Part shown: one piece after another, positions 10,210 through 50,500 of the stretch
Position numbering within the stretch: position 1 is the stretch's first letter
How the letters are laid out: each line of letters opens with the position of its first letter
Assembly (NCBI GenBank): GCA_013286385.1
Contig: JABDFU010000002.1
Span: 20,575 to 84,574 of the forward strand
Length of the DNA: 64,000 bases
Origin: Bacteroidota bacterium
GTDB lineage: Bacteria > Bacteroidota > Bacteroidia > JABDFU01
Reading direction: 5' to 3'
Notes under the pieces: model-generated
Databases searched by the model: none
What the model was told of the DNA's origin: nothing
What the model saw: the letters and a program-made list of their open reading frames with translations, nothing else
Made by a program: the position numbers and the translations under genes

Positions 10210-10216
10210 TTCAGTA

Positions 10217-22114: not shown

Positions 22115-22996
22115 CTATTCGCTCGCTAACTTTTTGATCTTTTCCTGAACATCCTTGTTCACTCTCACCAATGGCAGGCGAACCGCGTGTTCGCAAATTC
22201 CTATACGGTAGAGAAATTCCTTGACTCCTCCCGGATTGCCATCGGCAAACATCTGCTCTATGATATCGAGGTGCTTGTAGTGAAGCAAACGGGCTTTTTT
22301 GCAGTCTCCCCTGAGGGCACGTCTGACCATTTCAGAAAATTCCAACGGATAGGCATTGGCCAGTACAGATATGACCCCGTCGCCACCGCAGGCGATGATT
22401 GGCAATGTAAGCGCATCGTCACCTGATATTACTAAAAAGTCTTTCGGTTTGTTTTTGATGATTTTCATGCATTGCTCCAGATTGCCTGAAGCTTCTTTCA
22501 TGCCAATTACATTTTTTACTTCATGGGCAATCCTAAGCGTAGTTTCTGCTGTAAGATTTGAAGACGTCCGTCCGGGCACATTGTACAAAATAACAGGTTT
22601 GGGGGATTCTTTTGCAATCAGCCTGTAGTGCTCGAAAATGCCCTGCTGACTGGGTTTGTTGTAATAGGGCGACACCGACAGAACGGCAGCAATAGCGGAG
22701 AAATCGTATCCGTCAAATCCCCTGATAATTTCATGCGTATTGTTTCCTCCGTGTCCCAGAACCACCGGTACGCGTTTATCCGCGGCTTCCTGTATGCATT
22801 CCAGTACATCCGCTTTTTCCTTTTTTGAGAGTGTTGCGGTCTCACCGGTTGTTCCCAGAGCGACAAGGTATTCCACCTTCCCTTTTACAATGTGGTTAAC
22901 CAGTTTTTCAAGCGCTTTAAAATCGACACTTCCATTGGCTTTAAACGGAGTAACAAGTGCCACCCCTGTTCCCCTAAGCAGATTAACGATACTCAT
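22115..22996 (-). CDS. dapA: 4-hydroxy-tetrahydrodipicolinate synthase
   Basis: GVALVTPF, ALGTTGETATLS and YNVPGRT motifs. 293 aa. Confidence 0.9.
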   Translation of the reverse strand: MSIVNLLRGTGVALVTPFKANGSVDFKALEKLVNHIVKGKVEYLVALGTTGETATLSKKEKADVLECIQEAADKRVPVVLGHGGNNTHEIIRGFDGYDFSAIAAVLSVSPYYNKPSQQGIFEHYRLIAKESPKPVILYNVPGRTSSNLTAETTLRIAHEVKNVIGMKEASGNLEQCMKIIKNKPKDFLVISGDDALTLPIIACGGDGVISVLANAYPLEFSEMVRRALRGDCKKARLLHYKHLDIIEQMFADGNPGGVKEFLYRIGICEHAVRLPLVRVNKDVQEKIKKLASE

Positions 22997-23029
22997 TGCC
23001 GTACTATTTAATAATTATAATTAAGGATG

Positions 23030-23037
23030 CAAAGATA
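23030..23037 (-). promoter_or_regulatory. candidate -7 box (TAtcTTTG on the minus strand) for dapA
   Basis: The plus strand reads caaagata, 34 nt upstream of the dapA ATG at 22996. Confidence 0.35.
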
Positions 23038-23042
23038 CGATT

Positions 23043-26000
23043 TTAGCTTAACCTGATTCCGATCACACAAACATCATCCACCTGCTCCAGACTTCCCATC
23101 CAGGCTTTCAGAGATTTGTAAATGGCTTTCTTTTGCTCCTGCATGGGCAATGCAGAAACGTCCAGCAGCAATTGTTTAAAGGGCTTGTACAGGAATTTTT
23201 TTCCCCTGGAGCCCCCAAACTGATCGGCGAATCCGTCGGTAAATAAATACAGGAGATCTCCGCTTTCTATAGGGATGATGTGGTTGGTGAAATTCGAATT
23301 CATTTCGCTTTCACTGCCGATGGGTTGTTTGTCCGGTTTAATTTCAAACAGACAAAATTCGTTGCCGGTGAGGGAGGGTAGAATTTCTTTGCCATTGTCG
23401 ATTAGCTTCCTGTTCTTTTTTCTCAGCAGGTACATCCCGTTATTTGCACCTGCAAAATTCAGCTGACTGTTGGCCGAATCAATCATCAGCAGGGAGATAT
23501 CCATTCCGTCCCGAACAGCTGTTTTGTCATTCTGGCGGAGTGTTTCTTCAACCAGTGAATTCAGTTTGTCAAGTATGGCTCCGGGCTGGGTTAAGGCAAA
23601 CTCGTTTATCACTCTTGTTAATCCGTTGTGCCCCACCATGCTTACCAATGCTCCGGGTACCCCGTGTCCCGTACAGTCAACAGCGGCAATAAGCGATTTG
23701 TGATTCAGGTGATCAAACCAGTAAAAATCTCCGCTTACGATGTCCTTGGGTTTATAGAGGATGAAAAAATCTTTCAGGTATTGTTTAATTCTTTTGTGGG
23801 CCGGAAGAATTGCTTCCTGTATTCTTTTGGCATAGGTAATACTATCGGTAATGTTCTTGTTGTATTGTGCAATTTCACGATTTGCTTTTTCAAGTTCCTG
23901 GTTTTTTCCCTGGATAATGCTTTGTTGTTTTAAAATTTCAACATTCGAGCGCTTAATTTTAATGTACGAGAATACCCCGCCGATAGCAATCAGAATGCAA
24001 ATCGAATAAAACCACCAGGTCTGATAAAAAGGAGATTCAATCCTGAACGCAAAACAAACAGGTTCTGTATTCCATATCCCTTCGTTCGTACAGGCTTTTA
24101 CCTGAAATTCATACGTGCCGGGTTCCAGATTCGGATAAGGAACCTGAAGCTCGGTTGTTGCCATCCAGTCTTTGTCAAAACCTTTCAGGCGGTAGCGGTA
24201 AGAGACTTTCTGAGGGGCGGTTAAACTGACTCCGATAAAACTGAAAATAAAATTGTTCTGGGTATAGGGTAAAACAAGGATTTTTCCTTCTGCCCATTCT
24301 TTAGCACTGCCATTTATTTTAATATCCGTGATGTTTGTGATGGGCCTGCATTTGTTTTCAAAGTCCAGGTCTCTGTTGTAAATCAGGAGCCCATTGTTGG
24401 TTCCGATCCAGATCTGTCCGGTCGCTGAATCTGCTGTCATCACTCCCGCATTGCAGCTTTCTCCGGTAAAGCCGTCGGCTGCATCGAAGTGCCGAATCTC
24501 GGCTACCGAATCGTGCTCCATTTTTATTCTGTTCAGACCGTTGGTGGCACCGGCCCAAATGTATCCCCATGTGTCAACTGTAACCGAAGTTATGTCGTTC
24601 GAATTAAAATCTTTTCTGTCCGAAATCCGTGTAAAATCTTTTTGATTTTTTTTCTGCCGGAACAGGCCCGACTCAGTTGCAATAAATACGGTTCCCATTT
24701 TGTCTTCAAAAAAGGCCTGGACTATTTTCTCCGGCATACCCTCCTGCAAGGAAAAGTGAATCAGGTTGTTTTCACTGAGCAGGTAAAGTCCGTAATCGGT
24801 TCCTATCCAGATTCGCTTTTGCCGGTCTTCCATCAGGCATTTAACCGGCTTGCTTAGTTGCAGCCGGGAATAGGGTAAGATTCTGTTATTCTCCAGTTGG
24901 GCCAGGCCACCAAAGGTTCCCAACCAGGTTGTGCCTTTTGAATCCCGCATGATGCAATAACATTTGTCCAGGTTTTTATTTGCATTGCTTCGCAGGGTAT
25001 CATAATTAATTCCGTCAAACCGGTTTACCCCGTATTCCGAAGCCATTAGAAAAGATTTTTTATCTGAAATGAAGGATGTTAAATCACCTTGCAGAAGAAG
25101 TTTAGGAACAATTGCATTTTTAACAAGTTTCCCGTTATCCAGTTCAGATAATCCGGAAGCCGTCAGGACAAAGGTTTTAGAATCCTGAAGCAGAATACCC
25201 TTGATTTCATTTTTGGGAAGGCCTTCGTTGGTCGTTACCGATAAAAAACGTTCTGAGGACAACCTGGAAACTCCGTTTTGTTTTGAAGCAAACCAAAGGT
25301 TGTTTTCCCTGTCCTGAAAAATTTTCCAGATTGTGTTGTCAACCAATCCGTTTTTAACAGTAAGAAGATTAAATTTTCCCTTGCGGTAATTCAACACCCC
25401 CTGGTCGGTTCCTATCCAGATTGTACCATCTCTGCGATCTTTCAGGGAACAGTAAAAAAATGCACCTCCTTTTATCGCATCAATTTTGACAATTTGTAGT
25501 TTATTTTCCCTCAGTTCAAACAGGTTGTTTTCGGTCAGTATCCAATAGACCTTGTCTGAAATTTCAATTACCGAATACACCACTTCGCAATCCAAACCGT
25601 TTTTTGCCTGGTACCTCCGCATTGTTTTGCCGTCGTAACAAAAAAGTCCCTTGTGAGCAGTGCAAAACCAAATCTGTTTCCTGCTGTCCTCATAGATAGT
25701 AAATACAGTAGCGTTGCTCAGTGCCGAATCAGCTGTAAAGGCTTTAAACTGATGTTCAGAAAAAGTGCAAACACCTTTTCCGGTACCGAGCCACAGCGTA
25801 TTCCCCGAATCGAACAATCCGCTGAATACCGTTTCGTCCGGAAGGCCGTTATCCTTTGAATAATTGCTGAATTTTTTTCCATCAAAAACAGCGATGCCCT
25901 GATCTGTACCGGCAATCATTCTGTGCTGGTCTGGCCTGGTGAGACTGTAAATCAGGTTAGAGGGAAGCCCATCCTTATCACCTATTTTTTCAAAGCCGAC

Positions 26001-26204
26001 TCCGTTGTATTTTGTTATCCCTCCTTTATAGGTTCCCAACCAGATGCAACCTCTTTCGTCCTGTCCAATGGAAAGCACAACTTTGTCTGAAAGCCCCTGC
26101 TCTGAGCTGAAATTTTCAAAATGCAGTTGTTGCGTAAAGCCCTGAAGGGTAATAAATAAGAGGCTGACAATCGGTACAGCTAACCTAAAAGAGCACAGGT
26201 TCAA
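23043..26204 (-). CDS. sensor protein: periplasmic two-component-regulator propeller repeats + Y_Y_Y domain, one TM segment, coiled coil, cytoplasmic PP2C/SpoIIE phosphatase; 1053 aa
   Basis: Repeated GL..n.v..i..D..g.iW.GT units. TM segment WWFYSICILIAIGGVFSYI. PP2C motifs SGDFYWF, DCTGHGVPGA, DGMDISL, TDGFADQFGG. Confidence 0.85.
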   Translation of the reverse strand: MNLCSFRLAVPIVSLLFITLQGFTQQLHFENFSSEQGLSDKVVLSIGQDERGCIWLGTYKGGITKYNGVGFEKIGDKDGLPSNLIYSLTRPDQHRMIAGTDQGIAVFDGKKFSNYSKDNGLPDETVFSGLFDSGNTLWLGTGKGVCTFSEHQFKAFTADSALSNATVFTIYEDSRKQIWFCTAHKGLFCYDGKTMRRYQAKNGLDCEVVYSVIEISDKVYWILTENNLFELRENKLQIVKIDAIKGGAFFYCSLKDRRDGTIWIGTDQGVLNYRKGKFNLLTVKNGLVDNTIWKIFQDRENNLWFASKQNGVSRLSSERFLSVTTNEGLPKNEIKGILLQDSKTFVLTASGLSELDNGKLVKNAIVPKLLLQGDLTSFISDKKSFLMASEYGVNRFDGINYDTLRSNANKNLDKCYCIMRDSKGTTWLGTFGGLAQLENNRILPYSRLQLSKPVKCLMEDRQKRIWIGTDYGLYLLSENNLIHFSLQEGMPEKIVQAFFEDKMGTVFIATESGLFRQKKNQKDFTRISDRKDFNSNDITSVTVDTWGYIWAGATNGLNRIKMEHDSVAEIRHFDAADGFTGESCNAGVMTADSATGQIWIGTNNGLLIYNRDLDFENKCRPITNITDIKINGSAKEWAEGKILVLPYTQNNFIFSFIGVSLTAPQKVSYRYRLKGFDKDWMATTELQVPYPNLEPGTYEFQVKACTNEGIWNTEPVCFAFRIESPFYQTWWFYSICILIAIGGVFSYIKIKRSNVEILKQQSIIQGKNQELEKANREIAQYNKNITDSITYAKRIQEAILPAHKRIKQYLKDFFILYKPKDIVSGDFYWFDHLNHKSLIAAVDCTGHGVPGALVSMVGHNGLTRVINEFALTQPGAILDKLNSLVEETLRQNDKTAVRDGMDISLLMIDSANSQLNFAGANNGMYLLRKKNRKLIDNGKEILPSLTGNEFCLFEIKPDKQPIGSESEMNSNFTNHIIPIESGDLLYLFTDGFADQFGGSRGKKFLYKPFKQLLLDVSALPMQEQKKAIYKSLKAWMGSLEQVDDVCVIGIRLS

Positions 26205-26209
26205 CGAAA

Positions 26210-28066
26210 TTATTCTTTTATGATCTTAATCGTTTGGGTCGAATTGTTTGCCGATACCCGCAGTAAATAAATCCCGGAAGAGGGAAGGTTGTCCTGCTGA
26301 ATCGCATACTGGTAAGATCCGGAGGCCTTGCAGGCATTTTCAACCGTAGTGATTTTCTGACCCAGATTGTCATACAGATCGATCAGAACAAAGGAGTTGG
26401 AAGGGAGTTCAATTCCAATCCGGGTTTCAGCCGACCAGGGATTCGGATAAACGCGGGCAGAAAAATGGCCTGAATTGAAATCGGCTGCAGAGAGTGGTCC
26501 GCAAAGGGTGTTATCCGGATTGATCGAATCCGGGAAGATGGTGTAACTAAGGCAGTTTATTGAGCTTCCGGAGGAGACTGTGAACGAATAGGAGCCAGAA
26601 GAACTGATTCCCGGCATATCCACTATCATTGTATAATTGCCGGGATCGAGGTTGTTGAAGCTGAAATTACCGCTGCTGTCCGTGCTTGATTTAACGGCCA
26701 GTGATCCGCTGGGTTTCTTTTTTACGACGATGTCAATTCCTTTCACATCATTTGAGGCCATTACCAGATTCTTGTTTTTCCTGCTTCCCGATTTGCGCAT
26801 AGGATCCAAAGGGGCCATAAAGGGGTTTTCGTAGGGAAAGGTTGTTGTAATGCTTCCCGACAACGATACAGCATTGGATTGGGGGGCGTGGTATTTGATT
26901 TTAATATTGTTTCCGGTAGCGTTGCACCTGCAATTTATCGTATTGATCGAATCGGAGTGCATCCAGGTTGCCGGAGAACCTGCTACGGTATCCCCGTAAT
27001 AGGTTGTTACCGAATTGGGGTATTGTGTGGTATCCGGAATGACAGCCACACGGTAATAACCATAGGGAATTGAGTCGAACTGGTAATTTCCGTTCAGGTC
27101 AGTGACCGTATAATCCAGGATGTCATCCCGCATAAAATTAGAGTGGTCCCTGAACAATAAAACCTGATTTTTACCCTTGGTCAATGCGCTTTTCCCGGAT
27201 GAGTCCAGGGCCGTTCCTGAAATTGATCCGAATGCAACCGGCAGGGTATACCAGGCTGCATTTGCGTTACCGTCGAAATCGTCGTCCTGCAAATACATCA
27301 ACACCGAAGTGGCGAAGGTATTGTTGCGTAAAAATTCGCATCGTGAAAAGTCGGTTTCACTTGCAGGCACGTAGGCCGGATAATATTGATAGGTTCCCAA
27401 AACATTCACATAAAACGTATCTAATTCAGTGACCAGTTCATTTGTCATTACGACATTGGTATAGGTTACTCCCGGAATTTTTAAGGTTCCGTAACCCTCG
27501 TAGGACATGATTTTGTACTGGGTGTGCACATGCTTAACTGGAAAAGTGCCGTACGAAGGAATTGTGTAATTGAAATAAGCCACCTGTATGGACGTGTCGT
27601 AGGTGACCGGCGTACTGCTGTTGAATTCGAAAGGTGTTACCAGTTCTGCCCTAACGGCAGTATATACTGCATTGTTGAAAGCCTTTTTTTCATTGACGGT
27701 TCCTATATTATACAGGCCGTTATAATTCAGCCTATAATACAGAAAAAGCGAATCGACCGTTTCGTATTTTGGTATGGCCCGTACAAAGGCACCATTTGTA
27801 GCTGTTGGAAATGTTGTTCCCGAGGGTCCTGAAGCAGGCGGGACAGTCGAAAGCTGAAAGGTATCTGAACCGACATAGTTAAGGGAATAGTCCCATGTAA
27901 CTCCTGATCCGGAGGCAGGCATAGGCAATACATTGGTTGCCGTATCCCAGACCTCTTTTACAGCGGTACCATTGACTGGCAAAAATGAACCATAAATGGT
28001 TGGAGACTGGGCCCTTGTCAGGGAGCACAGCAACAGGGCGGAGAACAGGAAGTAAATTTGCTTCAT
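26210..28066 (-). CDS. T9SS type A cargo protein of unknown function, 618 aa
   Basis: Signal peptide MKQIYFLFSALLLCSLTRAQ. C-terminus VYPNPWSAETRIGIEL...GIYLLRVSANNSTQTIKIIKE (Por secretion tail). Its stop lies 5 nt upstream of the sensor gene start. Confidence 0.75.
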   Translation of the reverse strand: MKQIYFLFSALLLCSLTRAQSPTIYGSFLPVNGTAVKEVWDTATNVLPMPASGSGVTWDYSLNYVGSDTFQLSTVPPASGPSGTTFPTATNGAFVRAIPKYETVDSLFLYYRLNYNGLYNIGTVNEKKAFNNAVYTAVRAELVTPFEFNSSTPVTYDTSIQVAYFNYTIPSYGTFPVKHVHTQYKIMSYEGYGTLKIPGVTYTNVVMTNELVTELDTFYVNVLGTYQYYPAYVPASETDFSRCEFLRNNTFATSVLMYLQDDDFDGNANAAWYTLPVAFGSISGTALDSSGKSALTKGKNQVLLFRDHSNFMRDDILDYTVTDLNGNYQFDSIPYGYYRVAVIPDTTQYPNSVTTYYGDTVAGSPATWMHSDSINTINCRCNATGNNIKIKYHAPQSNAVSLSGSITTTFPYENPFMAPLDPMRKSGSRKNKNLVMASNDVKGIDIVVKKKPSGSLAVKSSTDSSGNFSFNNLDPGNYTMIVDMPGISSSGSYSFTVSSGSSINCLSYTIFPDSINPDNTLCGPLSAADFNSGHFSARVYPNPWSAETRIGIELPSNSFVLIDLYDNLGQKITTVENACKASGSYQYAIQQDNLPSSGIYLLRVSANNSTQTIKIIKE

Positions 28067-28092
28067 CGGGTTGGGTTTTTAATACACGATAC

Positions 28093-28100
28093 CAAATGTA
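28093..28100 (-). promoter_or_regulatory. candidate -7 box (TAcaTTTG on the minus strand) for the 618-aa cargo / sensor transcription unit
   Basis: The plus strand reads caaatgta, 27 nt upstream of the ATG at 28066. Confidence 0.35.
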
Positions 28101-28138
28101 AGATTTTAACCAAGTCCAGTCAAATCGTTGAATTTTCA

Positions 28139-29191
28139 TTAAAAAACAGGCTGCTTCCTGAGGTTCTGAAGAAATTTCAGGGTGTCCACTCCATCCGCAT
28201 AATCCCAAAGTTCCGGCGATTGGGCGCTCCCGAACTCAACTTTTCGGCTCACGTTATCCATGCCCGAAACCAGGCACTGGATATTCCCTGAATCCATCTG
28301 AAGTCTTTGGTTTAACTCAGTAGCATTGGAATAGTATTCATAAAATAATACAGCAACAGGAGAAGATAATCCGATATCTTCTTTCAGCAAAAGAAACCCA
28401 TTTTCAATCAGGTTGATTCCCTGCATGAGGTAAACGGTTTTGTTGTATTCATAGTTATTTGCGTATTTATTGTGGTTGATGATGTTTTTGTAATCAAAAA
28501 TACCTCCAAAAAAAAGATCAAAATCATAGCCTTCGGGGACGAATAATTTAGAGATGCTTCTGCAACCCAGGCCAAAATACTGAAACACATCTTTTCCAAG
28601 TAATTGCATTTGCTGTCTGCTTTCGCTGCCGCTTAAAACGGCAGCTGAATTTCTGTTTTTACGTATGATGTGCGGGTATTTCCCGAAATAGAAGTCGAAG
28701 TACCTGGAAGAATTAGAGCTGCCTGTTGCAATGATGGCATCAATTTTAGCAAGTCGTCCCTCTGTAAACTGAATTTGTTTTTTGAATCCGGGTTCAATCG
28801 AAATCAGGATTTCGCAAATCAGTCTTGGCAATTTTTCATCGTCGCCGGATGCTTTTACCAGTGCATTGTGTCCGGACAGAAGTACACAAAGCAGATCGTG
28901 AAAACCGGCAAGCGGAATATTGCCGGCCATGATCAGCCCTATGGTTACAGGTGATTCAGGTTCCAGGGAATAAGATTCGGCGGAATAGGGTTCCAGCCAG
29001 CGGCTGAGTTGTTCGGGTACCAGACTTTTTCCCCATTCTGTAAAGACATGCAGTACATTTTCTTCGGTAAACCATCCGTTGTAAATAGAACTGCTTGCGG
29101 CAAACTCAGCCAGTTTTCCCTTTTTTTGACCTGCCTGGAGTAAAACGGCCCCCAGTTTTTCCAGTGCATTTATTTTTTGCCGAAGCGTCAT
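28139..29191 (-). CDS. LuxC-like acyl-CoA reductase family protein, 350 aa
   Basis: Length and overall pattern (NGWFTEENV, LIMAGNIPLAGFHDLL, KYANNYEYNKTVYLM) match my recollection of the Bacteroidota acyl-CoA reductase family. Not verified. Confidence 0.55.
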   Translation of the reverse strand: MTLRQKINALEKLGAVLLQAGQKKGKLAEFAASSSIYNGWFTEENVLHVFTEWGKSLVPEQLSRWLEPYSAESYSLEPESPVTIGLIMAGNIPLAGFHDLLCVLLSGHNALVKASGDDEKLPRLICEILISIEPGFKKQIQFTEGRLAKIDAIIATGSSNSSRYFDFYFGKYPHIIRKNRNSAAVLSGSESRQQMQLLGKDVFQYFGLGCRSISKLFVPEGYDFDLFFGGIFDYKNIINHNKYANNYEYNKTVYLMQGINLIENGFLLLKEDIGLSSPVAVLFYEYYSNATELNQRLQMDSGNIQCLVSGMDNVSRKVEFGSAQSPELWDYADGVDTLKFLQNLRKQPVF

Positions 29192-34445: not shown

Positions 34446-35189
34446 TTAGATTTTCTGTCCGACCACAATCAGACGTTCTGATGTCTCCGGCTTGAAATCC
34501 TCTAACTGGTAATTGCCGAACAGATTGGTGATTTTTAAACCGGTCGCTTTAAAGTAGTGTTCAAAATCGGCCTGCCTGAGCAGTTGTACTTTTTCGCTGT
34601 ACTGACGAAGCCCTGAATCGGTTTTGAATTGAATGTCTTTCATCAATTGGTTACCTGAAATGTATTTGCGGATTTTAAAATGGATCCCGTCAATGTCTTT
34701 TTCTTCGCTGACCGGGCATTGCCTCAAAACGGTATTCGAATTGAAAAAATCAATAAGCAGAATACCCTCTTTTTTCAGGGCCGTGTACATGGTTTTTACC
34801 GCAAGTTCGTTTTCGTGTTCAGTTTTGAAATAACCGAAACTGGTAAATAAATTCAGGCACAGGTCAAAATAGTTGCTGACAAAGGGTTTGCGCATATCGT
34901 GTACAGCAAAACGCAGGTTTTCATTTTCATGGCTCCTGGCGAATGCAATGCTGTTTTCAGAAATGTCAATGCCGGTTACATCGTATCCTTTTTTATTCAG
35001 GTAGATGGCATGTCTTCCCCTCCCGCAGGCAATGTCTGCAATACGGGCATTATCCCTCAGCTTTAGCCGTCCCAGAATACTGTCAATAAAGCGTTTCGCT
35101 TCGGTCTCATCCCTGTTTTTGTATAAGGTATGGTAGTATGAACTGTTGAACCAATCTGAAAACCATTCTGTTTCCTGCGTTTTTGACAT
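34446..35189 (-). CDS. class I SAM-dependent methyltransferase, 247 aa
   Basis: Start moved to the ATG at 35189 (MSKTQETEWFSDWFNSSYYHTLY). Motif I is IADIACGRGRHAIYL. The 81 upstream codons of the track ORF are Trp/Thr-rich nonsense that overlaps the divergent promoter region. Confidence 0.75.
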   Translation of the reverse strand: MSKTQETEWFSDWFNSSYYHTLYKNRDETEAKRFIDSILGRLKLRDNARIADIACGRGRHAIYLNKKGYDVTGIDISENSIAFARSHENENLRFAVHDMRKPFVSNYFDLCLNLFTSFGYFKTEHENELAVKTMYTALKKEGILLIDFFNSNTVLRQCPVSEEKDIDGIHFKIRKYISGNQLMKDIQFKTDSGLRQYSEKVQLLRQADFEHYFKATGLKITNLFGNYQLEDFKPETSERLIVVGQKI

Positions 35190-35221
35190 TCTGCAAATGT
35201 AGTATTTCCGCATCAACTTCT

Positions 35222-35229
35222 TATATTTG
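35222..35229 (+). promoter_or_regulatory. candidate -7 box (TAtaTTTG) for sensor 2
   Basis: tatatttg lies 43 nt upstream of the ATG at 35272. Its 3' part lies inside the first copy of a 19-nt direct repeat. Confidence 0.35.
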
Positions 35230-35271
35230 GCTGGCTTTCCAATTGTATTTGGCCGGCTTTCCAAGAGGCTT

Positions 35272-38200
35272 ATGAAAGGTATTCCCAACTTATTCTGTAA
35301 AACAAGGCGCCTGGGAATCAGTTTGCTTCTTATCCAGCTATCCGTTGTCCAGCATGTCTCCGTAGGCCAGAATGTCCCGGCAGGCCAGAACTCATCCGTT
35401 GCCCAGAAATTAAACGTAAAGCTCAGGCACATTACTTCAGAGCAGGGTTTGTCCCAGTCGATGGTGAATTGTATTTTGCAGGATCACCGGGGATTCATGT
35501 GGTTCGGTACCCAGGACGGTTTAAACCGCTACGACGGCAATAAAATAAAGGTTTACAGCGCCGATCCCGATAACCCGCAAAGCATAGCAGGTAATTTTGT
35601 AAGCTGCCTGCTGGAAGATAATCAGGGCCGCATCTGGATAGGTTCTGAAAACAACGGTATCAGTATTTACGACCCCCGAACTGATAATTTTATACGGCTG
35701 CTGTCTGAAGAGGCCAACAAAAGTTCCCTGAGCGATAACTCGATTAAGAATTTATGTCTTGGGCGGGATACTAAAATATGGGTCGCAACTGCAAAGGGCT
35801 TAAACGCAATTGATTTGAATACCCTGGATGTGCAGCGCTATTTTATAGGTTCTTCAGAAAAACCGGAGATCATCACCAACGAAATCTACCTGATTGTCGA
35901 ACATCCGGCTGAGCAGAAGTTATGGGTCATTACTCCTCTTGGTATTTATTCCTTTGATAAACAAACGGCCCGTTTTACCAGGCTCAGTCTTTCAGACCGG
36001 GAATTGGGAAAAATAAATTCGGCTACAGTTGACAATGCGGGCCATATCTATATCAATACCAACCTGAAAGGAATTAAAATGCTTGACGTTCAGAACGGCT
36101 TGATAAAAGAAGATCAGTTTGCTCAGTTGAGGTACAAAAAGGGGGATGTCTTTCAGATTACTTCTGCCAGCCGGAATAATGAGGGCGTATATTATTATGG
36201 TACGGATAAAAAAGGAATTCTTCTGCTGGACAGCAAAGGAAACTACCGGGAAATCAGTTCGGGCGATCAGCCTGGAAATTTATTAAGTGATAAAATTCAC
36301 TGCATTTACTTTGATCCTTCGGGCTATATGTGGGTGGGAACCGATCTTGGGGTTGACTTTTTGCAGGCGGGGAAACTGAAATTCAAGACGATTACCACCC
36401 AGGATTTCGAAACCGGCGCACTTGGGAGCAACGATATTATGTCCGTGCTGAAAGATGGAAACAGGTTGCTTTTGGGAACCAGCAGCAAAGGCCTGAGCGT
36501 AATCGATCTGGTCAGCGGTAAGGCCCTGGAACTGCCCAAAGGTATCCCTTACGGAAGTGAAAACGGAGTCCTCAGCATACTGAAAAATGCTGAGGATAGT
36601 TACTGGCTGGGAACATGGGGAGGCGGGTTGGTTAAAGTTGATCTGAAAAATAAAACATTTCGCAATTTTAAGGCCTCCAACAGCATTTTGTCCGGACAGA
36701 ATATTACCTGCATGACCAAAGAGGGTGGTAAGCTCTGGATCGGAACTCTTGAAGAGGGTCTCTTTCTGCTCGACGAGCGGTCTGAAACTTTCAGTAAATA
36801 CACTGTCAATAATGGGCTCAGTTCCAACAGTATTTATTTTCTGGGTTTGGATAAAAACGGAGAATTGTGGATTGGCACAGTAGCAGGCGGTTTTGATGTA
36901 CTCAATACCCGCACAAAAAAGATCCGCGTTTACAAACACGAAAATTCTTCAAAACATTCCCTTAGTTCCAATACCGTCAACTATGTTTACCACGACGACA
37001 ACGGAATTGCCTGGATTGCCACTGACAACGGCCTGAACAGGTTCGACCCCGGATCAGGATCTTTTCTTTCCTATTACAAAAAGGACGGCTTGCCCAACAA
37101 TTACATTTACAGCATTCTTCCTGACGAAAGAGGTAATTTATGGATGAGCACTAACAAAGGGCTCAGTAAATTCAACCCCTTTGTTGAAAACACAGATGGT
37201 TCAGCCTTTACCAATTACGGTCCCGATGATGGCCTGCAAGGTGAGGAATTTAATCAGGGGGCTTACTATACTGCTTCGGACGGACAGCTGTATTTCGGCG
37301 GACTCAACGGAATCAGCGTTTTTTACCCCGAACGCCTGACCTCCAGCAGCCATATTCCTCCCGTATACATTACTTCCTATAAGCGATTTAATAAGGAAGT
37401 GAAACTCGACAGTTCGGTTCTTGTAAAGCGTCATATCGGGGTTTCGTACAAAGACAATTCCTTTTCGTTTGAATTTACGGCACTTGATTTTGATGATCCC
37501 GGAAGGAACAAATATTCCTGGAAAATGGAGGGCTTGCAGCGCGACTGGTCACCTCCCGGTATTCGGAATATTGCCGAATACCCCGAACTCAGTCCGGGTG
37601 AATACACGTTCAGGGTAAGGGCTTCCAACAGTGACGGAGAATGGAATACTACCGGCACTTCCATACGGATTTCTGTTTACCCTCCCTGGTACAAAACCAA
37701 ACTTGCTTATTTCTTTTTTGTGCTTGCAATGCTTGTTTCCACCTGGGGATTCAGTCAGTACCGAACCCTAAGGGTGGCCCTGCAAAAAAAGGCCCTGGAA
37801 CGAATGGTTCTTGACCGCACCATTCAGCTGGCTGATAAAAACAGGGACATCACGAGCAGCATCGAATACGCGAGAAAAATTCAGGATGCGATTTTGCCCC
37901 CGCTGTCAGACATTCACAAGGCTTTTTCGGACTCTTTTATTTTTTACAAACCCCGCGATATTGTCAGCGGGGATTTTTACTGGTTTTACGAAAAGGGGGA
38001 TAAAAAAATAATAGCAATTGTTGATTGTACAGGACATGGGGTGCCCGGGGCCTTCATGAGCATGATAGGTCATAATCTGTTGAATCAGGTCGTTATTGAA
38101 AAAGGTATTTTCTCAGCAGCCGAAATTCTCAATCAGCTGCGAAAAGGAATTCAGGCTGCCCTGAAACAGGGAAATTCAGGCATAGGCAGCAAGGACGGGA

Positions 38201-38610
38201 TGGACATCGCCCTCTGCGTTTTTGATGCCGGAAAAAATCAGATCCGCTATGCAGGGGCCTACCGCCCTCTTTATCTTTTCAGTGATGCGTATCCTGAAAA
38301 ACTAAAAAAAATAAACGGTGATAAATTTCCGGTAGGAGGGGCCCAGTTCGGAGAGGAGCAATCCTTTACAGAGCATATCCTTCAGCTTAACAAAGGAGAC
38401 ATGATTTACCTGTTTACAGATGGTTATTCTGATCAGTTTGGAGGAGAAAAGGGCAGGAAGTTTATGTTGAAACAGCTTACGGATTTACTGGGTACATGCT
38501 GGCATCATCCTGCAAAGGAACAACAGCGCATTCTGGAAGAATCGTTTGCGGACTGGAAAAAATCAAACGACCAGGTCGATGATGTTCTGATCGCGGGTAT
38601 ACGTGTTTAA
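35272..38610 (+). CDS. sensor protein paralog: periplasmic propeller repeats + Y_Y_Y, TM segment, coiled coil, PP2C/SpoIIE phosphatase; about 1112 aa
   Basis: Same architecture as 23043..26204. TM segment LAYFFFVLAMLVSTWGF. PP2C motifs SGDFYWF, DCTGHGVPGAFMSM, DGMDIAL, TDGYSDQFGG. The track ORF begins at the TTG at 35227; I prefer the ATG at 35272 (MKGIPNLF..). Confidence 0.85.
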   Translation: MKGIPNLFCKTRRLGISLLLIQLSVVQHVSVGQNVPAGQNSSVAQKLNVKLRHITSEQGLSQSMVNCILQDHRGFMWFGTQDGLNRYDGNKIKVYSADPDNPQSIAGNFVSCLLEDNQGRIWIGSENNGISIYDPRTDNFIRLLSEEANKSSLSDNSIKNLCLGRDTKIWVATAKGLNAIDLNTLDVQRYFIGSSEKPEIITNEIYLIVEHPAEQKLWVITPLGIYSFDKQTARFTRLSLSDRELGKINSATVDNAGHIYINTNLKGIKMLDVQNGLIKEDQFAQLRYKKGDVFQITSASRNNEGVYYYGTDKKGILLLDSKGNYREISSGDQPGNLLSDKIHCIYFDPSGYMWVGTDLGVDFLQAGKLKFKTITTQDFETGALGSNDIMSVLKDGNRLLLGTSSKGLSVIDLVSGKALELPKGIPYGSENGVLSILKNAEDSYWLGTWGGGLVKVDLKNKTFRNFKASNSILSGQNITCMTKEGGKLWIGTLEEGLFLLDERSETFSKYTVNNGLSSNSIYFLGLDKNGELWIGTVAGGFDVLNTRTKKIRVYKHENSSKHSLSSNTVNYVYHDDNGIAWIATDNGLNRFDPGSGSFLSYYKKDGLPNNYIYSILPDERGNLWMSTNKGLSKFNPFVENTDGSAFTNYGPDDGLQGEEFNQGAYYTASDGQLYFGGLNGISVFYPERLTSSSHIPPVYITSYKRFNKEVKLDSSVLVKRHIGVSYKDNSFSFEFTALDFDDPGRNKYSWKMEGLQRDWSPPGIRNIAEYPELSPGEYTFRVRASNSDGEWNTTGTSIRISVYPPWYKTKLAYFFFVLAMLVSTWGFSQYRTLRVALQKKALERMVLDRTIQLADKNRDITSSIEYARKIQDAILPPLSDIHKAFSDSFIFYKPRDIVSGDFYWFYEKGDKKIIAIVDCTGHGVPGAFMSMIGHNLLNQVVIEKGIFSAAEILNQLRKGIQAALKQGNSGIGSKDGMDIALCVFDAGKNQIRYAGAYRPLYLFSDAYPEKLKKINGDKFPVGGAQFGEEQSFTEHILQLNKGDMIYLFTDGYSDQFGGEKGRKFMLKQLTDLLGTCWHHPAKEQQRILEESFADWKKSNDQVDDVLIAGIRV

Positions 38611-38623
38611 GGGGTTCCTGAGT

Positions 38624-43204: not shown

Positions 43205-44419
43205 TCAATCTTCCTGAACGATTTTTTGAACCGAAGGGACCCCGTTGATCAGGCTGTGAATGAAGTAAACACCTCTGTTTGACACGGTCAGGGTATACAG
43301 GTAATTTCCGGCGCTCAGGTTTTTGTTCTCGACAGCTTGCACAAGCTGTCCAAGAGCGTTGTAAACAGAAATCTGCACCAGGGCATTTTCCTGCAATTTC
43401 AGGCTCAGGTTGCTGCTGGTGTTGAACGGATTCGGGTAAACGCTTACGGCAGCCGGATTCGAATGTTCTTCAATTCCGGTACTGATATTGGTAATGTAAA
43501 CTCCGCTTCCGTTTGAACCCGCATAGAGGTCAGAGCCGATTGCAGCCAGCGAAGTGATGTTTGCGGTGGTCATTCCTCCGTTATAAGCAGACCAGCTGGT
43601 CCCGTTATTGGCGGACATATAAACTCCGGAGCCATCCGTGGCAGCATAGATGTTGCCACCTGAGGAAAGCATAACGTACACATAACCTCCTCCTCCGATT
43701 CCTGTATTGATTGCAGACCAGGAAACTCCGTTGTTCGATGACATGAATATTCCGCTGCCCCAGGTAACGGCATACAGATAGTTTCCGGACGCATAGAGTT
43801 GTGTTAAATTATTTCCGCCGGTATTCAGGGAATCTGATCCGCTTCCGCTTGCAACGGTCCAGTTGCTGCCATTGTTGGTTGACATAAAAACCAGACCATT
43901 TTCAGTTCCGGCATATAGGTTTTTTCCGGATACCGCAAGGGACACTACATCAAGGCTGGTCAAACCGGTGTTCACCGTCTTCCAGGAAGTTCCGTTGTTG
44001 GTAGACATAAAAACCCCGCTGAAGGTTGCTGCAAACAGATCGCTGCCGATCAGCGCAAGCGAATAAACCCCGGTATTTGTAAGGCCGCTATTTTCAGCTG
44101 TCCAGGTGGTTCCGTAATTGCTGGAGAGAAAAACCCCTCCGCTTTGTGTTGCGGCAAAGAGCAAGGTATCTGATACGGCAAGGGCCAGAACGGAAGTATA
44201 GGCTGTAAGGCCGCTGTTGATCGCAGTCCAGACCGTTCCGCTGTTTGTGGTTACAAACAGGCCTGAACCTGCGTCGGTTGCTGCATAAACATTACTTTTA
44301 ACGGAAGTAATGGCGGTAACAATACCAGTTGAAACGCTTCCGGTTGTTTTGGTCCATTGGGCCGTTGCAAACTGAGTGGCAACTAAAAGGCTGAGGGAAA
44401 TAAGTACGATTCTTTTCAT
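43205..44419 (-). CDS. 6-7-bladed BNR/Ycf48-like propeller protein with type A T9SS sorting domain, 404 aa
   Basis: Six clear units of about 42 aa, GvF.StNnGtsW..vNtGL...v.sLa..g..lyA, plus a short partial seventh. C-terminus VYPNPFNTSSNLSL...GVYFIHSLINGVPSVQKIVQED. Confidence 0.75.
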   Translation of the reverse strand: MKRIVLISLSLLVATQFATAQWTKTTGSVSTGIVTAITSVKSNVYAATDAGSGLFVTTNSGTVWTAINSGLTAYTSVLALAVSDTLLFAATQSGGVFLSSNYGTTWTAENSGLTNTGVYSLALIGSDLFAATFSGVFMSTNNGTSWKTVNTGLTSLDVVSLAVSGKNLYAGTENGLVFMSTNNGSNWTVASGSGSDSLNTGGNNLTQLYASGNYLYAVTWGSGIFMSSNNGVSWSAINTGIGGGGYVYVMLSSGGNIYAATDGSGVYMSANNGTSWSAYNGGMTTANITSLAAIGSDLYAGSNGSGVYITNISTGIEEHSNPAAVSVYPNPFNTSSNLSLKLQENALVQISVYNALGQLVQAVENKNLSAGNYLYTLTVSNRGVYFIHSLINGVPSVQKIVQED

Positions 44420-44512
44420 GCCGCCAAATTAAGATTATTTTGGATTCCGGGGCTGAATTTTTTAGGCTGAATTCGGGCAAAGCTTAAATGTCGGAAGTTA
44501 CGCAGTGTTTCC

Positions 44513-47500
44513 CTACTTAAGCAGGGTGACATCCCCGATATAGGTGTGATAGATGTCAAAAACGTCGGTTAACTCAACCTGCCAGACATAAACATCCTGC
44601 TGGGCGACAGAACTTCCGTAATTGGCTCTTCCGTCCCAGCCTATGCTCAGGCTATTGGTTTCAAAAATCAGATTTCCCCAACGGTCGAAAATGTCCATTT
44701 TGTATTTCTTGATATAGGTACCGACCCCGTTAAAAGTGTCGTTGAGGCCATCTCCGTTAGGGGTAAAGGCATTGGGAATATAAAAGGTGAACTGCGGGTA
44801 TACCACCAGGCAGTTTTCTGCGGAATCCTTGCATCCGTAAAGGTTCGTTACCAGCTGCCAGACGCAGTACGTCCCGGTGTCCTTATAGGTGTGCCGGGGG
44901 TTTTGAACATAATTCATTGAATCAATTTCGGAACCATCACCGAAATTCCATTTCCAGGTTACTGCACCTGAAGATTTGTCCTGAAAATTTACAAAAGGTG
45001 CCAGTACGCTGACCGAATTCGGGTTGCAGACAAATCCTGCAACCGGTAATCCCTCTATAGTGATGTAATCGGGTTTAGTGGCAACGTTCGTGCAGCCGTG
45101 CGAAGTCGTAACTCTAAGGGATACCGTGTATTTGCCCACCCTATCATAGCAATGTGAGGGATTTTGCTGGGTGGAAGTTTTACCGTCACCGAAGGTCCAG
45201 AGCCAGGATTGAATTGCAGAGCCGTCAGGAGAGGTGCTTTTATCCGTAAAGCTGACGCAAACATTCTGACAGGCACCCGTGTCGTTTGCCGTAAAATTCA
45301 CAATGGGATTTGAATAGACCGACACTGTAATCAGGGCTGAATCGGGAGGAGTGGTACATCCGTCGTTTACAACTACCGTATACGTTGTGGTTACTTCAGG
45401 CGCTACGGTGATCGTGTCCCCTGTATAGTTAAAGGGTTCCCAGGTAAAGGAATAGCTGCCCGAACCGCCGCTGGCGTATACAGACAGTTTAGCCGGGGAG
45501 CCCGGACAAATGCCCGCAGGAGAGGCCTGTGCCTGAATATCCAAAGGAGGCTTGACGTGGACGGTTATCGTAACCGGGTTTGAGGGACATCCGTTTTCAT
45601 CCGTTGCAATAACGGTGTAGGTAGTGGTGAGGGTCGGGTTGGGGCTGAAATTGGCTCCGGTAAACAATCCGTTATTCCAGGTAAAGGTATAAGCCGGAGT
45701 GCCTCCGGTAGCAGCTGCATTGAGGTGGGCGACCTGGCCTATGCAGATATTTGTGTCTCCTGAGGTAATCACAATCAGAACAGAGGGGGAGCTGATTTTA
45801 ACCCGGGCTGTATCCTTGCAGCCAAACTGATCGCTGACGGTGACGGTATAGGTGCCTGTACATAAATCGCTGATAGCAGAAGTGTCCTGCACCGGTACGG
45901 TATTCCAGCTATAGGAATAAGGGCCGACGCCTCCGCTGGCTGTGGCGGAGGCAAGGCCGTTGCAGTTTCCGAAGCAGGTTACATTGCTGAAGCTGGTAAT
46001 GGCGGCTTTTGGTCCGCCGGCATTGGCCACGCTAAGTTTCAGGGAATCCCGGCATCCGTTGTTATCTGTTACCAAGACAGCGTAGTTGCCCGGATAAGCG
46101 CTGTCAATTAAACTTGCTGTATCATTGCCTGGTTTCCAAAGGTAGCTGTAGGGAGGAGTGGCTCCGCTTGCCGTTACGGTGAGTACCCCGTCGTTCTGAT
46201 TGCAATGCGCCGTGACACTGGTTCCGCTTAGCGAAAGTGCAGTGGGTTCCGTAATAACGATGCTGGTTGTATTCGTACAGCCGTTTGCGTCTGTCACCTG
46301 TACCGAGTAGGTGCCGATGCAAAGACTATCAATACTTAAATTGTGGCTGCCGGTCGACCACTCTACCGTGTATGGTTTTATACCGGCAGAAGGGATGATT
46401 ACCGCTTGTCCGTTACAGGATTTGTAACATCCAACCGGAAAACCTGCTGAGGCAATTGCTACCTGTGTGGCCTGGCTTACAATTGCAGAATCCTGGATGC
46501 TGCAGTTTTTTGAATCGGTTATAGTCACAGTGTAAACTCCGGAAGTAAGGTTCGGGATTAAATTGGCTGAGCTTCCGGTATTCCAGGAGTAACTATAGCC
46601 GCCGTTTCCGCCGTAAGCGCTGATCTGAATGCTCCCCGTGCCTTTGCTGAAACAAAGCACATTCACAATTTTCATACTGTCCGTAATGGCCGGTGGCTGT
46701 GTGATGACTACCGTATCTGCAAGGCTGCAACCCGAAAGGTCTGTAATGGTCAGGGTATAGGATCCGGCCAGAAGATAGTTGACAGAGCCGCCTGTAAGGT
46801 TTCCCGGCATCCAGGAATAGGCATATCCTCCTGTTCCTCCTCCCGCTATGGCGTTGGCCGATCCCGATGAATCCTGATAGCAGGTCAGGTTTGAAACGGC
46901 TATGGTTGAAGTCAGCGGAGATGGCTGGGTCAGTGTTGCGCTGGCACTGTCCAGGCAACCATTGGCGTCTGTGACATAGACCGAGTAGCTCCCTGCTGCC
47001 AGTTTCACAGCGGCAGAATCTGATCCGGCAATTGTCTTCCAGCTGTAGCTGTAAAGCGGCGTTCCTCCGCTTGCCTGAGCAGTTGCTGATCCTGTTTTGG
47101 CTCCGGCGCAGCTGACATTGACCTGCGAAATACTTGTATTCAGTTGTGTAGGTTGAACCAGCACAATGGTATCAGAAAATGTACAACCCAGGGAGTCGAA
47201 CACATTCAAGGTGTACGAACCGGCCGGCTGGCCTGTCATACTATCGGTGAAATTACTCATGGGCTGCCAGGAATAAATATAAGGGGCAGTGGCCCCTGAA
47301 ACTGTAACATAGGCGCTTCCGTTTTTGTCCGAAAAACACCGGGGATTATTTTGCAAGACTGTAGCAGCGAAGGCGGCAGGCTGAGTCAGCACAGCTGAAC
47401 TGTCAAATGTGCAGCCATTGTTATCGGTAATGGTCAGGCTGTAGGTTCCTGCCGGCAGGTTGGCATTGGTTGAATCGTTCACTGAAACCGGTGACCAGGA

Positions 47501-50500
47501 ATACGTGTACGGCAGCGTCCCGCCCGCAGGAGTTACGCTGATACTGCCGTTGCTTCCCTTGTTGCAAAACACATTGTTGACTACATGAAGTTGCCCCTGC
47601 AGCAGCAGTGGTTCTGTTATTGTTACCGTATCCAGAGCAGTACAGGAGTTGGCATCGGTCAGTGTAAAATAATACTGTCCTTTGGCAAGATTTGAAATTG
47701 AAGAAACTGTTGAGCCTGTGGACCAGCTGTAGGTATAGGCCGGAGTTCCTCCCCCTGCAAAGGCGCTTGCCGTTCCTGAGGCTCCTCCAAAGCAGGAAAC
47801 ATTCTGCCGGTTTACCAAAATCGAAAACGGACCCGGTTGAGTTACAGTTGCAGAAGCGGTAGCTGTACAGGACTGTCCGTCCGTTACGGTAATGGTGTAG
47901 GTGCCTGCCGCAACCAACGAAGTGGTGATGCCGGTTCCTCCCGAAGGTGACCAGGAATAGGCATACGGAAGAGATCCTGCATTGGGGACTGCTGTAACCA
48001 TTCCATTGCTTCCGCCCGGACAACTCACCGGACTGGCCGTGGCAACAACATTCGGGGGCAAGGCAAAATTATCCAGCGTCAGGGTACGGGTATCTGTACA
48101 ACTGAATGCATCTGTAACCGTAACCGTATAGGTACCCGGCGAAAGATTGTTGGCAACAGAATCGGTACTCACCGAAGGACTCCAGGCGTAGGCATAAGGT
48201 CTTACTCCTCCGAAAATGCTGATTGATACACTGCCGTTGGGAAGCAGGCATTTCGGATTCTGAATGACAGGGGGCATTATAAAAGGGGTGGAAGATGGTG
48301 TAATCGAAAAAATCTGAGCGGTGTCGCAGCCATTGGTATCGGTAACTTCGACAATATAGGTACCCGGACTCAGGTTGCTTTCTACCTGTCCGGTGCCTGC
48401 GAAACTCCAGGTATAAAAATACCCGGGAGTACCGCCTCCGGGTATAGCCGTTACCACATAGTTATTGCTTCCGCTACAGGCAACTTTTGTTACCGACAGG
48501 TTGACCGTAACCTTTTCGGGTTGTCCAACCTGAACCGAATCAACCAAAATACATCCGCTGATATGAATATCCGTGATGGTAACGGTATACATACCGGGAA
48601 CAAGATTCACCTGACTCTGATTGGTATTGTTTCCGGGAGCCCAGTTGTACGTGAATACCCCCGAGCCCCCGTTTGCAGTAACACTGGCCTGTCCGTTTAC
48701 GTCCCCGTAACAGGTGACGGGGACCGAAGACATCGCGGCTGTGATACCGTTGCTTAAAGTGATGGAAGCTGAATCCAGCGTACTGCATCCGTTTGCGTCT
48801 GTGATGTAGACGTACTCCTTACCGGGTAACAGGCCTTTTATGGTATCGTTGGCTGAATAAACCGGAGACCAGGAATAGGTATACGATCCGGTACCTCCGC
48901 TGGCAGTTGCCCAGGCTTCCCCGTTCGAACTGCCGCAACTGGCCAGTTTAACCCCGGTGGTTCCGCTGATTTTGGAGGGCTGAGAAACCGATCCCAGGGC
49001 TGAAATGCTGCAACCTTTGCTATCTGTGACAGTCACCGCATAAGCACCGGCAGCCACATGAGCGAGGGTATCTGATGTCCCGGATCCCGGTATCCAGGAA
49101 TACGAGTACGGTTCGTTTCCTCCGACGGGGCTTATCCAGATAGCGCCGCTGCTATCTCCGAAGCAGGTAAGGCTCCTGGTCGAAATCCCTGCGCTCAGCG
49201 CCAGGGGTTGGGTAAGAACAGCAGAATCCATGGACGAACAAAAGGTATTGACGGCATCCGTCACTTTTACGTAATAAGTTCCCGGAGAAAGTCCGCTGAT
49301 GGTGCTTCCGGTGCTGCCTCCGGTCCAGGAATACCGGTAACTTCCGGAGCCTCCGCTGGCGCTTGCAGAAATGCTGCCGTTCGACAGGCCGTTGCAACTG
49401 ATATTCTGCGGGGTCAATGTAATGACAATGCCATTGGGCTCGGTAATTTTTGCCGAATCTTTCGTCGTACAGCCGTTGTTATCTGTGACGGTTACAAAAT
49501 AGGTCCCTTTATAAAGTGAACTGATGGCGGCTGAACTTGATCCCGTACTCCACAGATAGGTATATGGGGCAACGGCACCGCTAACACTGACCCCGGCAGT
49601 TCCGAAATCTGATCCGCATGCGGTATTGGTATGATTCATCGTGAGATTCATCCCGGAAGGCTGAGTAAGGCTAATCGATCGTGTTGCAGAACAACCGTTT
49701 GCATCTGTTGCGTTGACGGTATATGTTCCCGGACTTAGATTTTTCAGCGTATCGGCAAGAACAAGTCCGGGGTTCCAGGTGAACTGGTAGGCTCCGGTTC
49801 CTCCGCTGCCTGAAATACTTACCTGACCATTGCCGTAACCGAAGCAACTGATATCCGATGAGTCCGCTTTCAAAACAAAAGCGGCCGGTTGTGTGATCGG
49901 GGCCGCACTTACAGAGGTGCAGCCATTTGCATCGGTTACCGTAACCGAATACGTGGCAGGGCTTAGATCTGAAAGTGAATTTCCGGTTGAAGCATTCGAC
50001 CAGAGGTAGGTATATGGGTTGGTTCCGCCCGAAACAACAAGGCCGGCTGTTCCGTTTGAATTACCGAAACAATTGATGTTGACTGCATTTACGGTAGAAA
50101 CCAAAAGCCCGGGCTGAGTGATCCGGATGGTATCCGATACGAAACAGGCTGCGTTGGCGGCATCGGTTACTGTAACGCTGTAAAGCGAGGGTGATAATCC
50201 ATTGATTGCTGCAGAGCTATAGCCGCCAGGGCTCCAGCTGTAAACATAGGTACCCGAACCTCCGGTTGCCACCACGGTCGCCGTACCATTGGCAGCCGAA
50301 TTGCACAGTACATTTGTCCGGCTGATGCTGTTTAGTGCAACGGGATTGGGTTCACTAATTTGTACGGAGTCAACAGCGCTGCAGCCTTTTTTATCGGTAA
50401 CGGTGACCGTGTAGGTTCCTTTGGAGAGATTTACAAGACTGTCAGCAGTGCCTGTAACCGGAGCCCATTGATAGGTATAGGAACCGTTACTGCCTGAAGC

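Follow-up and report, generated by a model that had tools for sequence, protein, structure and literature searches.

In Pseudomonas aeruginosa, the SiaABCD system (PA0172-PA0169; PDB 6K4E, 6K4F, and 6KKO) comprises the membrane-bound PP2C phosphatase SiaA, the kinase SiaB, the DUF1987 phosphoprotein SiaC, which is phosphorylated at T68 within the peptide LLYLNTSSIK, and the cyclase SiaD (PMC8457831; 10.1101/674879), and SiaABC has so far been described as a controller of cyclic di-GMP (c-di-GMP) and biofilms in Pseudomonas only. A similar logic operates in the Firmicutes, where a sensor-regulated PPM phosphatase (RsbU, RsbP, or SpoIIE) and a small GHKL-type kinase (RsbW or SpoIIAB) act against each other on a STAS-fold phosphoprotein (RsbV or SpoIIAA). 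The hybrid two-component systems (HTCS) of Bacteroides, such as BT4663 (PDB 4A2L/4A2M), sense through Reg_prop propellers and a Y_Y_Y domain that precede a single transmembrane (TM) helix. Here we describe two sensor phosphatases, designated P0001 and P0002, in a 64-kb stretch (the window) of one contig of a Bacteroidota metagenome-assembled genome (MAG; 2.37 Mb, 94 contigs, 66% complete), in which an HTCS-type input is joined to a SiaA-type PP2C output. Judging from sequence comparison, we think it likely that both are SiaA-type phosphatases feeding a SiaB/SiaC partner switch and not a STAS/anti-sigma one. Contigs of this genome are labeled C#, and the genomes and loci of its relatives G# and L#, respectively.

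Our sensors share with SiaABCD the overall plan of a membrane sensor with a cytoplasmic PP2C domain after a helical linker, a SiaA-type PP2C with all metal-binding residues, SiaB-family kinases and SiaC/DUF1987 proteins with a phosphorylatable equivalent of T68 in the same genome, and, in the case of the P0001 orthologs, an operon with SiaB-SiaC. They differ in the input, which is an HTCS-type double propeller plus Y_Y_Y of ~750 residues instead of the periplasmic/HAMP module of SiaA; in the output, because neither SiaD nor GGDEF is found in this lineage; in the wiring of many sensors to few kinase/substrate pairs; and in gene order, a conserved lipoprotein X being inserted in the operon of the relatives while both of our sensors are unlinked from SiaB/SiaC. 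With the Bacteroides HTCS they have in common the propellers, the Y_Y_Y domain, and the single TM helix, and transmembrane signaling is probably dimeric and ligand-induced in both, but the output is PP2C in place of HisKA-HATPase-REC-HTH_AraC and there is no adjacent polysaccharide utilization locus (SusC/SusD). RsbU and other sensor PPMs are controlled through a coiled-coil/helical linker and the PP2C dimer (PMC12143880), which is likely common to our sensors, whereas the predicted substrate (DUF1987, SiaC) and kinase (SiaB) are different from those of the Firmicutes switches, no sigma factor is implicated, and the sensors are extracytoplasmic. The predicted system as a whole follows a SiaABC-like logic with HTCS input, no cyclase output, and many-to-few wiring. 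Work on Pseudomonas was all that our literature search on DUF1987, SiaB, SiaC, PP2C, or the propeller-PP2C architecture in Bacteroidota turned up; the "SiaC" of one report (PMC11885536) is an unrelated sialidase.

P0001 is composed of a signal/anchor, a tandem Reg_prop β-propeller region (residues ~49-700), a Y_Y_Y domain, a TM segment (~811-829), a helical linker, and the PP2C domain (~881-1112), and P0002 has the same layout with its TM segment at residues 732-750. Pfam detected Reg_prop (E 2.5e-43 and 3.2e-35 in P0001 and P0002, respectively), Y_Y_Y (1.7e-15 and 4e-16), and SpoIIE (4.4e-17 and 4.2e-18), and the two proteins align from end to end (28% identity, E 7e-111), confirming the shared architecture given in a preliminary description of the window. 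Its assignment of the periplasmic part to the Bacteroides HTCS type was also borne out, the N-terminal ~800 residues being homologous to the periplasmic domains of these sensors (4A2L, E 9e-115; 3V9F, E 1e-83; 3OTT). HisKA, HATPase_c, REC, and HTH_AraC were not detected by Pfam in either protein, and SpoIIE stands in their place. Because an N-terminal hydrophobic signal/anchor and one hydrophobic segment after Y_Y_Y are present, the sensor part would be periplasmic and the phosphatase cytoplasmic. The architecture shows that what appears to be the glycan-sensing ectodomain of Bacteroides transcriptional sensors has been re-wired to predicted Ser/Thr phospho-signaling in environmental Bacteroidia. 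The two proteins are indeed a homologous pair, as had been proposed, but they are not the only ones: this genome encodes at least six propeller/Y_Y_Y-PP2C proteins, two of them in the window.

Of the 658 positions of the NCBIfam SiaA profile, only 383-657 matched the two sensors, with E-values of 1.7e-54 and 1.6e-60. The sole strong PDB match of the PP2C region was the PP2C domain of SiaA (6K4E; E 6e-36, ~36% identity over 270 residues), compared with 4e-4 for Rv1364c and ~1e-3 for RssB among the RsbU-like structures. The active-site residues conserved in SiaA, D457, D474, G477, D600, G601, and D653 (10.1101/674879), correspond to D901, D918, G921, D1050, G1051, and D1103 of P0001 and to D826, D843, G846, D990, G991, and D1043 of P0002, and D534 and D604, which support a third metal in SiaA (10.1101/674879), correspond to D978 and D1054 of P0001; P0002 has D902 and D994. 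These residues of P0001 lie in the motifs GD901FYW, D918-C-T-G921-HG, DGMD978, TD1050-G1051-YSD1054, and QVD1103D. The catalytic Asp residues, whose degeneracy the preliminary description had named as the observation that would speak against it, are therefore preserved in both sensors, and the idea that they are pseudo-phosphatases was rejected since the active-site residues are intact. While partners of the RsbU/SpoIIE type (STAS and RsbW) had been sought for them, both PP2C domains match SiaA instead and are, by homology, SiaA-type and not of the RsbU/SpoIIE subtype.

The predicted partners are encoded on other contigs. Four SiaB-family kinases scored above the NF038262 cut-off (one on C8, two on C31, and one on C4), each directly followed by a SiaC/DUF1987 gene, and one further orphan SiaC makes five SiaC-like genes. 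SiaB of this genome matches P. aeruginosa SiaB (PDB 6KKO_A) with an E-value of 5e-14, and the C8 protein retains the position of E61, the Glu predicted to be catalytic in SiaB. The aligned YxN-T/S position, which corresponds to T68 of SiaC, is occupied by Thr in the C8 protein and by Ser in those of C4, C31 (twice), and C9. The two pairs on C31 are complete and in tandem (C31:672-2652), and in many relatives tandem or fused double SiaB genes (open frames of 360-390 codons; e.g., G008:C1:28405-29469, G004:C14:68589-69662, and G025:C8:92891-93973) precede a single SiaC gene. An apparent frameshift in the C8 SiaC gene was rejected as a lesion, because it is a 10-N scaffold gap (C8:60621-60630) that mimics a frameshift in six-frame searches. 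There are 13 SpoIIE-domain genes in this genome, consisting of six propeller/Y_Y_Y, three TPR, one seven-transmembrane (7TM), one HAMP, one partial, and one RsbU-type GAF protein, and 12 of them are SiaA-type; the GAF-PP2C protein, on C41, has the motifs GGDYYD and GDVSGKG and the best Pfam SpoIIE score of the genome (3.6e-40). This genome also encodes a single stand-alone STAS protein (C56:2107-2472; TIGR00377, E 2.8e-16) and a single RsbW-like kinase (C6:69428-69841, E 2e-16), whose genes are linked neither to each other nor to any PP2C gene. The reading that there are no partner-switching components and that the substrate is unknown is not supported at the genome level, and a genome-wide search suggested at that time did recover a STAS protein and an RsbW-like kinase but no Hanks-type Ser/Thr kinase. 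The puzzle of the missing partners is largely resolved: a sensor that had no apparent pathway is now testable, with a kinase and a candidate phospho-substrate named and placed on the map.

Gene order in the relatives links P0001 to these partners. Scanning one genome per species gave 584 relatives of P0001, and the best 80 of the 584, taken further, included ~45 full-length propeller-PP2C proteins, nearly all from Bacteroidia MAGs. Lineages of Sediminibacterium, Arcticibacter, and Chitinophagaceae are among the relatives. In 34 of 43 related loci, same-genus genomes included, the sensor gene is followed on its own strand, at a distance of 0.1-1.1 kb, by genes for SiaB and SiaC. In a maximum-likelihood tree, P0001 and the L016 protein (65% identical) nest (support of 98 in the Shimodaira-Hasegawa-like approximate likelihood ratio test, SH-aLRT) within a 24-member clade that has 21 members linked to SiaB/SiaC, and the enclosing clade of 41 sequences has 34 linked members. 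The usual gene order is a divergent methyltransferase gene, which forms the conserved left-hand border of the locus, followed by 7TM-PP2C, sometimes TPR-PP2C, propeller-PP2C, lipoprotein X, SiaB, and SiaC. Of the 34 linked loci, 30 have X, a protein of ~280 residues (e.g., L017:14945-15778), inserted after the propeller sensor and before SiaB. X carries a lipobox (SCKK/GCRKK) together with several Cys residues that are invariant; Pfam assigned it to no family, and its AlphaFold model (all-β, pLDDT 73.8) had no PDB match with E < 0.07.

Within the genus, G004 (97% complete), G002, and L016 carry a P0001 ortholog (63-65% identical), X, SiaB, and SiaC, and their SiaB proteins are 94-97% identical to that of C8; between C8 and distant relatives, SiaB is still 66-82% and SiaC ~90% identical, compared with ~40% for the sensors. 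G003 has the methyltransferase, 7TM-PP2C, SiaB, SiaC, YfiR-like, TPR, and HAMP-PP2C genes, and G005 has the methyltransferase, SiaB, SiaC, YfiR-like, TPR, and HAMP-PP2C genes, with the genes to the left of the methyltransferase syntenic with the window. From these loci the ancestral order should be methyltransferase, a variable sensor cassette, SiaB, SiaC, YfiR-like, TPR, and HAMP-PP2C. The sensors between the methyltransferase and SiaB vary within the genus (L141, L176, L177, and L178 vs window positions 34446-38610), from none (G005) through 7TM-PP2C only (G003) to 7TM-PP2C, propeller-PP2C, and X (G004), which points to a putative plug-in sensor cassette.

We regard it as improbable that the switch is a canonical one of the RsbU/SpoIIE type, with sensors that dephosphorylate a STAS protein, an RsbW-like kinase that opposes them, and a sigma factor that is released, the partners being encoded elsewhere in the genome. 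The STAS protein on C56 and the RsbW-like kinase on C6 would fit such a scheme, as would the two or three stand-alone STAS genes of relatives, and SiaC itself is structurally STAS-like (PMC8457831). However, the two genes are unlinked, the GAF-PP2C protein on C41 is the natural partner of the STAS/RsbW-like pair, and the PP2C domains of P0001 and P0002 match SiaA ~30 orders of magnitude better than they match the RsbU-like structures. Moreover, P0001 orthologs share operons with SiaB/SiaC, and inspection of their neighbors in the loci examined, without a STAS model, revealed no STAS gene.

P0002 is set in a different context. Among its reciprocal-best orthologs in nine other genomes (10 with ours, eight families; orthologs 35-66% identical), none has SiaB or SiaC within 8 kb, and the neighborhood is not conserved, except for a type IX secretion system (T9SS) cargo protein. 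This 618-residue cargo, a single-copy family in our genome, lies on the strand of P0002, 5 nt upstream of it, and a homolog adjoins the P0002 ortholog in G047 (upstream, same strand), G017 (divergent), and G045 (two copies, divergent), that is, in four of the eight families sampled with our own included, which supports the association with T9SS cargo that had been noted for P0002. In the same-genus genomes G004 and G001, another protein with a T9SS C-terminal domain (CTD), containing an SprB repeat, is encoded convergently downstream of the P0002 ortholog. In G005 (L177:16072-18345), also of the same genus, dapA (window 22115-22996) comes directly after the gene for a 350-residue protein (window 28139-29191), so the cargo and P0002 genes form, within window 22115-29191, a two-gene insertion of ~5 kb in our genome. 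The cargo is secreted and the PP2C domain cytoplasmic; hence, the cargo is not the phospho-substrate. It could be a surface co-receptor of P0002 or a co-regulated product, and the recurrent sensor-cargo pairing suggests a link between surface-protein secretion and the SiaB/SiaC pathway.

The same neighbors raise the question of whether the sensors act locally, on or for the adjacent T9SS cargo and adhesin genes, without any partner switch (e.g., by direct dephosphorylation of a T9SS/gliding component or regulator). We give this little credence. The 5-nt spacing, the cargo homologs beside P0002 orthologs in three other genomes, the different CTD protein in G004 and G001, and the two-gene insertion relative to G005 are all what it would lead us to expect, but the adjacency would also fit a SiaB/SiaC switch with a co-receptor or co-regulated gene, the cargo is out of reach of a cytoplasmic phosphatase, no Ser/Thr kinase is encoded besides the SiaB- and RsbW-type kinases, and the closeness of P0001 to the fiber/protease/adhesin cluster is absent in all close relatives.

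That closeness, put forward earlier as an association, turned out to be a lineage-specific breakpoint. In our genome, the break in the ancestral locus falls exactly after the P0001 stop codon and before X: P0001 adjoins the fiber gene, while X, SiaB, SiaC, YfiR-like, TPR, and HAMP-PP2C are on C8, with X at C8:58983-59855. The breakpoint is the 13-nt spacer between the convergent stops (Table 1), the position at which X follows in the same-genus genomes. Because the operon is broken after P0001, the gene order that places it near the adhesin cluster is accidental and recent. An independent Logan assembly of run SRR8422909 contains the P0001/fiber junction in a 47-kb contig at 100% identity over 13.9 kb; the contig and the MAG may share their source sample, yet the repetition makes a real rearrangement likelier than a chimeric contig. 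A look-up of the exact P0001 protein (with either start) returned no record. An assembly artifact hiding an ordinary sensor-X-SiaB-SiaC operon is improbable as well: X lies directly downstream in every close relative with a P0001 ortholog, the MAG is fragmented (94 contigs), and C8 has the 10-N gap inside SiaC, but the junction recurs in the Logan contig, both convergent genes are complete with natural stops, and no repeat is visible at the junction. We think that the cognate module of P0001 is most likely X-SiaB-SiaC on C8 (58983-60861), as predicted from the orthologous operons.

On C8, SiaB-SiaC is followed downstream (60979-64256) by genes for a YfiR-like periplasmic protein (NF053591, E 1.4e-32), for a TPR protein, and for a HAMP-PP2C sensor. 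This arrangement, kept in G003 and G005, resembles the repressor logic of YfiR-YfiN, the GGDEF domain being replaced by a SiaA-type phosphatase.

The phyletic pattern was surveyed in 61 Bacteroidia genomes from 52 families, counting P0002-like proteins with E ≤ 1e-50 as sensors. Sensor-like proteins were found in 43 of the 61 genomes and SiaB in 43 of the 61; 41 have both, 16 have neither, and the discordant genomes number two in each direction, one of the sensor-only genomes having a match to the propeller part only. The co-occurrence is significant by Fisher's test (p = 1e-10), which ignores deep phylogenetic non-independence. Many genomes have 10 or more such phosphatases vs one to nine SiaB genes, some of the latter in tandem or fused. 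The role of SiaC matters for the 43 of 61 genomes that bear the switch. GGDEF was absent from our genome and from 60 of the 61; the only match (G002:C21:61-471) may be contamination, because it is at the start of a contig in a 67%-complete MAG. Since there is no GGDEF, the SiaD cyclase output of Pseudomonas cannot apply, and a c-di-GMP output was rejected. No Hanks-type kinase (Pkinase) was found in our genome and three same-genus genomes (one 97% complete), so Hanks-kinase substrates were likewise rejected and the SiaB- and RsbW-type kinases are the only candidate writers of the phosphate erased by the PP2C domains.

The following mechanism would account for these findings, the substrate, direction of regulation, ligand, and target being those that we would predict from the comparisons above. 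The dimeric propeller/Y_Y_Y module would bind a ligand in the periplasm, which the analogy to the homologous HTCS domains of Bacteroides suggests is probably a glycan, and the conformational change would reach the PP2C dimer by way of the single TM helix and the helical linker. Once activated, the phosphatase would strip the phosphate added by SiaB from the conserved Thr/Ser of a SiaC-like DUF1987 protein, and unphosphorylated SiaC, or SiaB released from SiaC, would engage and modulate a non-cyclase target. A rearrangement after the P0001 stop codon would have parted P0001 from X-SiaB-SiaC, while P0002 would be an input that is constitutively unlinked and that goes together with a surface protein secreted by the T9SS. 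In this genome, four to five SiaB/SiaC modules may receive the signals of at least 12 SiaA-type sensor phosphatases.

Several points weigh against this scheme. Both sensors are far from the 700-bit equivalog cut-off of NCBIfam NF038263 (185 and 205 bits), because their N-terminal halves are unrelated to SiaA, and on this score neither sensor is a SiaA equivalog. R652 of SiaA, a proposed contact of the phospho-threonine (10.1101/674879), is replaced by Val in both. Neither sensor adjoins SiaB/SiaC in our genome, which is only 66% complete, and P0002 is never adjacent to them in the genomes compared, so that the case for P0002 is one of domain subtype and co-occurrence only, with the phylogenetic non-independence mentioned above. 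The stand-alone STAS proteins (one in our genome, two or three in relatives) and the RsbW-like kinase are possible substrates or partners, and the dephosphorylation of phospho-SiaC is a prediction for the Bacteroidia members.

DUF1987 proteins were proposed to modulate adjacent proteins generally (PMC8457831), and the output of the switch was sought among the neighbors of SiaB/SiaC. Clustering 44 SiaB/SiaC loci gave no universally conserved neighbor, and the only recurrent non-sensor neighbors were X and a TerB-ABC_tran-ABC2_membrane exporter with its own lipoprotein. Pooling the SiaB-bearing loci of all sets gave 81, and the exporter and lipoprotein, the best of these neighbors, occur in 13 of them; there, less than 10 kb from SiaB-SiaC, the exporter (~1020 residues) is accompanied by a lipoprotein of ~300 residues and a small Cys-rich protein that is secreted, in different families and in varying orientation. 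It is a positional candidate for the output of the switch, as a lead only. More broadly, and only tentatively, one may imagine a class-wide, c-di-GMP-independent SiaB/SiaC hub in Bacteroidia, served by interchangeable sensor phosphatases (HTCS-like propeller, 7TM, TPR, and HAMP with a YfiR-like partner), in which the P0002 orthogroup would be an old two-gene unit with a T9SS surface protein as secreted co-receptor and the effector would not be a cyclase, the TerB-ABCG-type exporter operon being its best positional candidate; we would sooner doubt than accept this extension as a whole.

Table 1. Sensor phosphatase genes, their domains, and neighboring features (window positions unless a contig or locus label is given).
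Feature	Position	Strand	Evidence
P0001 sensor phosphatase, 1112 aa	35272..38610	+	Open reading frame (ORF); same length in independent gene call on Logan contig
Y_Y_Y domain of P0001, residues 739-802, membrane-proximal Ig-like domain of HTCS-type sensors	37486..37677	+	Pfam
PP2C (SpoIIE/SiaA-type) catalytic domain of P0001	37912..38607	+	Pfam, NCBIfam, PDB match
P0002 paralogous sensor phosphatase, 1053 aa, TTG start	23043..26204	-	ORF, Pfam
T9SS cargo, 618 aa, CarboxypepD_reg-like domain and type-A CTD	26210..28066	-	Pfam
SAM-dependent methyltransferase, 255 aa (Logan gene call), divergent from P0001	34446..35213	-	Pfam, synteny
Convergent-stop spacer, 13 nt, P0001 stop (38610) to Peptidase_S74 fiber gene stop (38624)	38611..38623	.	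Sequence
TerB-ABC exporter loci	L136:8042-12519, L153, L165, L017:21237-24320, others; ortholog in this genome C7:60522-63602	varying	Neighborhood

The content of the window was examined with Pfam on 40 of its ORFs, a set without the two giant ORFs for adhesins and a few short ones (≤177 residues), and with whole-genome scans for STAS, HATPase_c_2, SiaB, and SiaC. No STAS protein, anti-sigma kinase, SiaB, or SiaC mapped to the 64 kb by either approach, and no histidine kinase, response regulator, or sigma factor was present among the 40 ORFs, so for the ORFs scanned the earlier impression that the window lacks all of these holds. The distances reported at that time, 13 nt from P0001 to the convergent fiber gene and P0002 placed downstream of the 618-residue cargo gene, by 5 nt, are also correct. 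The giant ORFs encode 2211 residues (3589-10224) and 4042 residues (44513-56641), the latter with SprB repeats, and their G+C content (51-54% at window positions 4001-8000 and 44001-56000) is higher than that of the rest of the window (~44%).

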